NCBI GenBank assembly: GCA_038087875.1 | Contig: CM075990.1 | Span: forward strand, 15,502,001-15,562,000 | From: Malacoraja senta | Taxonomy: Eukaryota | Direction of reading: 5' to 3' | Length of the DNA: 60,000 nt | Shown here: one piece after another, positions 35,105-35,373 of the stretch | How the letters are laid out: every line of letters begins with the position of its first letter | How positions within the stretch are numbered: the stretch's first letter is position 1 | Position numbers and translations under genes: made by a program | The notes under the pieces: model-generated | The model's database searches: none | What the model was told of the DNA's origin: nothing | Seen by the model: the letters and a program-made list of their open reading frames with translations, nothing else

Positions 35105-35196
35105 TTTCTGCCTCTGGTCGCATTAAAAGTCCCTCCGTATTTCTTCCGGTTAAGGATGAGAGCAGCAATTTCTGGTACGTAGCGAGCAAACATTGC
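35105..35196 (-). CDS. KCNMA1: BK alternative exon 9alt (92 nt, mutually exclusive with exon 9): [30 protein letters not shown](K)
   Basis: Acceptor ttttctgttccatgcatgtag|GCA, donor AGAAA|gtaagt. Same length and phase as exon 9, open frame, homologous peptide. Confidence 0.94.
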
Positions 35197-35281
35197 CTAC
35201 ATGCATGGAACAGAAAAAGAGAATGGCATGCAGAAAGTGTTCTACTGCAAAAGAGACAGCAGAGCCCCATCAGATACTTAC
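35197..35281 (-). promoter_or_regulatory. 85-nt intron between exon 9 and exon 9alt, with two TGCATG (Rbfox-type) motifs and a CTGAT branch-point-like motif next to the 5' splice site
   Basis: Minus strand: gtaagtatCTGATggggctctgctgtctcttttgcagtagaacactttcTGCATGccattctctttttctgttccaTGCATGtag. The TGCATG motifs are at 35227-35232 and 35200-35205. Confidence 0.6.
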
Positions 35282-35373
35282 TTTCTTCCATTTACCGCAC
35301 AATAGGTACCACCATATTTCTTGCGGTTCCCTATTAACTCTATGATTTCAGGGACGTAGCTTGCAAACATGGC
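35282..35373 (-). CDS. KCNMA1: BK exon 9 (canonical, 92 nt): [30 protein letters not shown](K)
   Basis: Acceptor tcttcttcttag|GCC, donor AGAAA|gtaagt, phase 0-2. Translated by hand because it is absent from the ORF track. Confidence 0.96.

Follow-up and report, generated by a model that had tools for sequence, protein, structure and literature searches.

Two alternative exons at the S6/C-linker of kcnma1

The DNA analyzed here, a window of 60,000 nucleotides from the genome of the skate Malacoraja senta, carries part of kcnma1 on its minus strand; the homologues ranking top in a search with exon 8 bear the name KCNMA1. The features that concern us are listed below in the direction of transcription, with exons numbered by the human convention.

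52410 to 52485, minus strand: exon 7, 76 nt, encoding S5
49945 to 50115, minus strand: exon 8, 171 nt, encoding the pore helix, the selectivity filter and the start of S6, and ending in phase 0
35282 to 35373, minus strand: exon A, which is kcnma1 exon 9, encoding the end of S6 and the C-linker (human residues 313-342)
35197 to 35281, minus strand: GT-AG intron of 85 nt separating exons A and B
35105 to 35196, minus strand: exon B, which is kcnma1 exon 9alt, encoding the same human stretch (313-342)
25377 to 25487, minus strand: exon 10, 111 nt, encoding the start of RCK1
18034 to 18139, minus strand: exon 11, 106 nt, encoding part of RCK1
14741 to 14822, minus strand: exon 12, 82 nt in the window, with a frame broken relative to its relatives
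10074 to 10142, minus strand: exon 16, 69 nt

In the numbering used for skate and chick, exon A is exon 10, exon B is exon 11, and the position is splice site 2.

The pair follows the pore exon and precedes the first RCK1 exon, and exons 7, 8, 10, 11, 12 and 16 are collinear around it. Both members are 92 nt long, run from phase 0 to phase 2 and are bounded by an AG acceptor and a GTAAGT donor, with exon A upstream; the split lysine codon that ends each of them takes its last base from the start of exon 10. A sequence-only reading of this DNA had described two homologous 92-nt exons of this phase with intact splice sites 85 nt apart, and our analysis confirmed their coordinates, their ends and the intron. 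The two peptides it had given also agree with our translation, the last lysine requiring the exon 10 base. When the entire minus strand was scanned for splice sites without protein information, both exons came up, with exact ends, among 30 candidates. Compared directly, exons A and B are identical at 61 of 92 bases in a gapless alignment, while the best of all other 92-nt sites on both strands of the 60-kb window reached only 43 against exon A (mean 23, SD 4.4). The absence of the two exons from the open-reading-frame track is plausible because the stop-to-stop frame around each comprises only 31 codons.

At the protein level, exon A aligns with residues 313-342 of human BK in solved structures (E values of 5e-12 to 7e-12), and exon B matches the same residues more weakly (E of about 6e-7). 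Exon A equals the commonest shark and ray form at 29 of 30 residues. Its codon 25 (35299-35301, minus strand) encodes cysteine at human position 337, unlike the serine found in 94/94 A-type segments, and this is either a genuine substitution in the C-linker or an error of the assembly.

Each exon has a single match in the genome, and genome searches, one of them a stricter first look, did not find a second kcnma1 locus. By that stricter first look, kcnma1 spans about 460 kb of contig C14 and its last exons lie on contigs C1052 and C5845. Among 24 named proteins, exons 1-2 are nearest to those of Amblyraja (76/80 and 58/69) and Leucoraja, with other rays and sharks behind. Exon 12 is one base short relative to its relatives, which breaks the frame; no exons 13-15 were found, and a gap of 200 N (13722-13921) lies directly downstream of exon 12. 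Both the break and the missing exons are probably faults of a draft assembly. A search of the genome with the PF03493 profile gave matches only at other loci, on contigs C11 and C1, with no KCNMA1 match by tblastn. Two exon-like matches on C11 (L004 and L005, G000:C11:18347699-18350119) do not align with KCNMA1, and their locus is likely to be a Slo2-type channel gene.

Reading frame and exon choice

The frame test on the window exons gave a simple rule. Transcripts joined as 8-A-10-11 or 8-B-10-11 are open, while 8-A-B-10 meets a stop at nucleotide 6 of exon 10 and 8-10, with neither exon, meets one at nucleotide 79. The proposal that inclusion of both or neither would cost the frame thus held, with a stop in exon 10 either way. 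Among annotated proteins longer than 900 aa in a set of 372, 23 isoform pairs differ solely in the 31-residue segment, and they come from skate, sharks, gar, bowfin, pipefishes, seahorses and lamprey (one pair, from Lethenteron).

Annotation pipelines do occasionally keep both exons. One RefSeq model of barn owl (P0114) holds both whole exons, is frameshifted and ends early at 425 aa, so the exclusion is not absolute. A further 17 predicted proteins carry both segments in frame, always A before B; these look like gene-prediction joins in which exon A has been trimmed.

We then considered how exclusion could be achieved. Within the 85-nt intron, consensus-like branch adenines occur only at nucleotides 4 and 12, with internal AGs at nucleotides 37 and 40, and the adenines at the usual distance from the acceptor sit 53 and 58 nt from the exon A donor. 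A donor-to-branch spacing of 53-58 nt is near the lower limit for splicing. Whichever branch adenines are used, the intron may therefore be too short for efficient joining of A to B, and nonsense-mediated decay could clear the remaining transcripts that hold both exons or neither, although these two steps have less support than the rest of the model. Each mature transcript would then likely keep one exon of the pair. The pyrimidine tract of exon B is weaker than that of exon A (0.73 versus 0.87), in line with a regulated minor exon. Pairing between a docking site and selector sequences in the RNA is not supported as the mechanism of exclusivity: between 34400 and 36200 there are 19 inverted repeats, none of which spans either exon at an outstanding length, as counted without a shuffle control. 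One 19-nt inverted repeat (35518-35536 with 35715-35733, 89% complementary) lies 145-360 nt upstream of exon A and may be due to chance.

Conservation of exon B across vertebrates

Exon B departs from exon A at 8 of 30 residues, including S317R, I323A, E324A, G327L and N340R, and four of the eight differences fall in the C-linker. Charge differs at exactly three positions (317, 324 and 340), and exon A retains both E321 and E324. Where the two exons encode the same residue, 13 of the 22 codons differ, as expected from long selection on the protein.

Homologue searches were seeded with exon 8, a cobra predicted protein and a lamprey protein. The best 120 matches to exon 8 comprised 77 A-type, 35 B-type, one with both segments and seven with neither, the last because those seven read into the intron; 120 more matches, obtained with a B-containing region as the seed, comprised 104 B-type and 16 with both. 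Segments were called B-type when they kept 12 of the first 16 residues, a filter that tolerates up to four changes. Among these 240 proteins, residues 313-329, including S317R and E324A, are constant in 156/156 B-type segments, a set that includes redundant isoform records and owes its second part to a B-containing seed. The segments come from lamprey, sharks, skates, sturgeon, gar, bowfin, teleosts, cobra, turtles, alligator, birds and mammals. All four residues of the signature R317, A323, A324 and L327 are present in exon B of the window and common to the 156/156. The invariant differences between the two exon types are these S6 positions (317, 323, 324 and 327); in the C-linker, by contrast, positions 330 and 335-340 differ from lineage to lineage. 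Position, tandem order and signature together support the earlier assignment of the pair to vertebrate slo1 exon 9/9alt.

The human exon event has been dated back to lamprey in the supplement of PMC8373072. The ten records examined of one lamprey kcnma1 paralogue (P0001, P0243 and P0343-P0350) are all B-type only, and from these sequences that paralogue may have fixed exon B; the other paralogue shows 14 A and one B among the 15 records listed of the 30 in its cluster. In the hagfish Eptatretus, model P0356 has a diverged B-like segment (14/30 to exon B) that keeps R317 and has valines at 323 and 324, while other hagfish models show a conserved A-type segment. In hagfish, selection on exon B may be relaxed.

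Published work links exon B to skate electroreceptors. Exon B is identical at 30/30 residues, over the S6/C-linker segment, to AJP74816.1, a cDNA cloned from skate ampullae (10.1101/274449), while exon A is the one present in three RefSeq models from that species. According to section 4 of that 2018 preprint, the skate ampullary BK channel uses exon 11 and the embryo form exon 10, in skate numbering. The suggestion that the electrosensory pore is picked by splicing was therefore right, but it is not a new inference, having been in print since 2018 (10.1101/274449).

The label "electroreceptor-type" given to exon B is misleading. Both S317R and E324A also occur in gar, bowfin, carp, pipefish, turtles, alligator, birds and mammals, and the exon is expressed in mouse cochlea, so that it is restricted neither to electroreceptive lineages nor to electroreceptive organs. 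To our knowledge, none of the groups just named has ampullary electroreceptors.

Conductance, gating and known exon pairs

On the anatomy of the pair, its frame rule, the identity to an ampullary cDNA and the conservation across vertebrates we build the following reading, to which we give a probability of about 0.88: these are the tandem kcnma1 exons 9 and 9alt, used one per transcript, and exon B is expected to yield a channel with lower conductance and altered gating, likely the one that electroreceptors use. The sequence-only reading named the two glutamates of PEIIE as a charge ring that boosts conductance, and PMC4319557 describes E321/E324 in these terms, the ring supplying up to 50% of the outward conductance. 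By dropping the ring glutamate E324, exon B would halve this ring of eight glutamates. Together with the arginines added at 317 and 340, this would draw less K+ to the inner pore mouth and so lower the unitary current, and the C-linker of exon B is expected to shift gating. Table 1 of PMC13687065 lists single-channel conductances of 103 pS for skate and 269 pS for mouse, both credited to Bellono 2017, and in a secondary account, which itself points to the few animals used, mutation of three charged residues restores mouse-like conductance (10.1101/274449). The pair dates from the ancestor of vertebrates and has uses elsewhere, for example in the cochlea, and skates would simply select exon B in their ampullary cells. 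The mechanism set out in the sequence-only reading is likely right, and exon B is not special to electroreceptors.

Could the charge changes nonetheless have evolved for electrosensing, making exon B an electroreceptor-specific innovation of skates and rays? Skate ampullae did yield the exon B form, and the catshark cDNA AWO14627.1 has a B-type segment too. However, the constancy of residues 313-329 extends to carp, gar, bowfin, birds, turtles, alligator and mammals, the chicken variant record ADD16632.1 carries the segment, mouse cochlea expresses it, and the pair has been traced to lamprey (PMC8373072 supplement). This refutes such an origin at the sequence level and leaves it very improbable overall; only a strong tissue preference could be lineage-specific. 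We consider it equally far-fetched that this genome holds exon B, or the entire copy of the gene, as a nonfunctional or wrongly assembled duplicate. The frame break in exon 12, the exons 13-15 missing near the 200-N gap and the last exons on other contigs would fit such damage. However, the splice sites of exon B are intact and its protein sequence equals that of an expressed skate cDNA, the genome searches gave no second kcnma1 locus, and the break in exon 12 falls within a short run of T, as would be typical of long-read error. Exons A and B also differ at 31 of 92 bases and therefore are not an assembly duplicate.

A more substantial alternative holds that the switch has been conserved for its effect on gating, by voltage and calcium through the C-linker, and that lower conductance is a by-product, important mainly to electroreceptors. 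The mouse exon e9alt is expressed in cochlea and alters gating (PMC11758846, citing Soom 2008): at zero calcium it moves half-activation by about -45 mV, and it makes the channel less sensitive to calcium. The effects of the exon thus go beyond conductance. C-linker sequence is also described as having a strong influence on gating (PMC7371421), and half of the A/B differences lie there. Against this emphasis, the invariant differences are in S6, while the C-linker positions are those that vary by lineage. We regard the gating account as a tentative possibility, and it is compatible with our preferred reading of an ancestral exon pair, from which it differs in emphasis alone.

If the residues credited with low conductance in skate act alike elsewhere, a wider claim follows, which we put just short of even odds. 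Because S317R and E324A are invariant in 9alt from lamprey to mammals, every vertebrate would carry a splice-selectable low-conductance BK channel, including mouse inner hair cells and neurons with 9alt, which would then have small-conductance BK channels; the skate value of 103 pS would be that of an isoform, and loss of the standard exon may have left one lamprey paralogue with the low-conductance exon alone. Since the residues tied to low conductance in skate are pan-vertebrate, the adaptation would be a choice of exon, not new sequence, and they make a prediction for mouse or human 9alt channels. In a literature search that covered mostly open-access papers, and is weak for that reason, we found neither a measured conductance for mammalian 9alt nor a link from it to the skate result; KCNMA1 had no match in two supplement files of PMC4494069.

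The same point touches published comparisons. The 2026 study of conductance evolution (PMC13687065) treats 103 pS in its Table 1 as a species value for skate, and this value likely comes from the exon B isoform. Its main text is silent on exons and splicing, "exon" occurring 0 times and "splic" twice, both in the reference list. Were 103 pS an isoform value, the point that study makes about cartilaginous fish would be weakened. More generally, tables that compare BK conductance between species can combine values from different isoforms.

The exon pair and its reading as a splicing switch are already known, and what we describe is the published pair found again in another skate. Splice site 2 of the little skate (Leucoraja erinacea), with its exons 10 and 11, matches the window pair in gene, position and clade. 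Those exons were reportedly described by King 2016 and Bellono 2017. The little skate RefSeq protein XP_055517668.1 agrees with exon A of the window at 29/30 residues, next to the 30/30 of exon B with AJP74816.1. Exons 9 and 9alt of mammalian KCNMA1/slo1 (Soom 2008; PMC11758846) show the same tandem order in the same region, and in five mammal-type segments residues 313-329 of 9alt equal those of exon B. Farther along, the mammal-type exon has N330, F332, K338, H339 and G340 where exon B of the window has K, Y, A, T and R; given G340, the charge change at that position is not common to mammals. The slo gene of Drosophila likewise has homologous alternative BK exons, with one set in the same region (PMC9741552, table S5), but these are attributed to convergent, distinct duplications (PMC8373072 supplement, with which PMC9741552 agrees).
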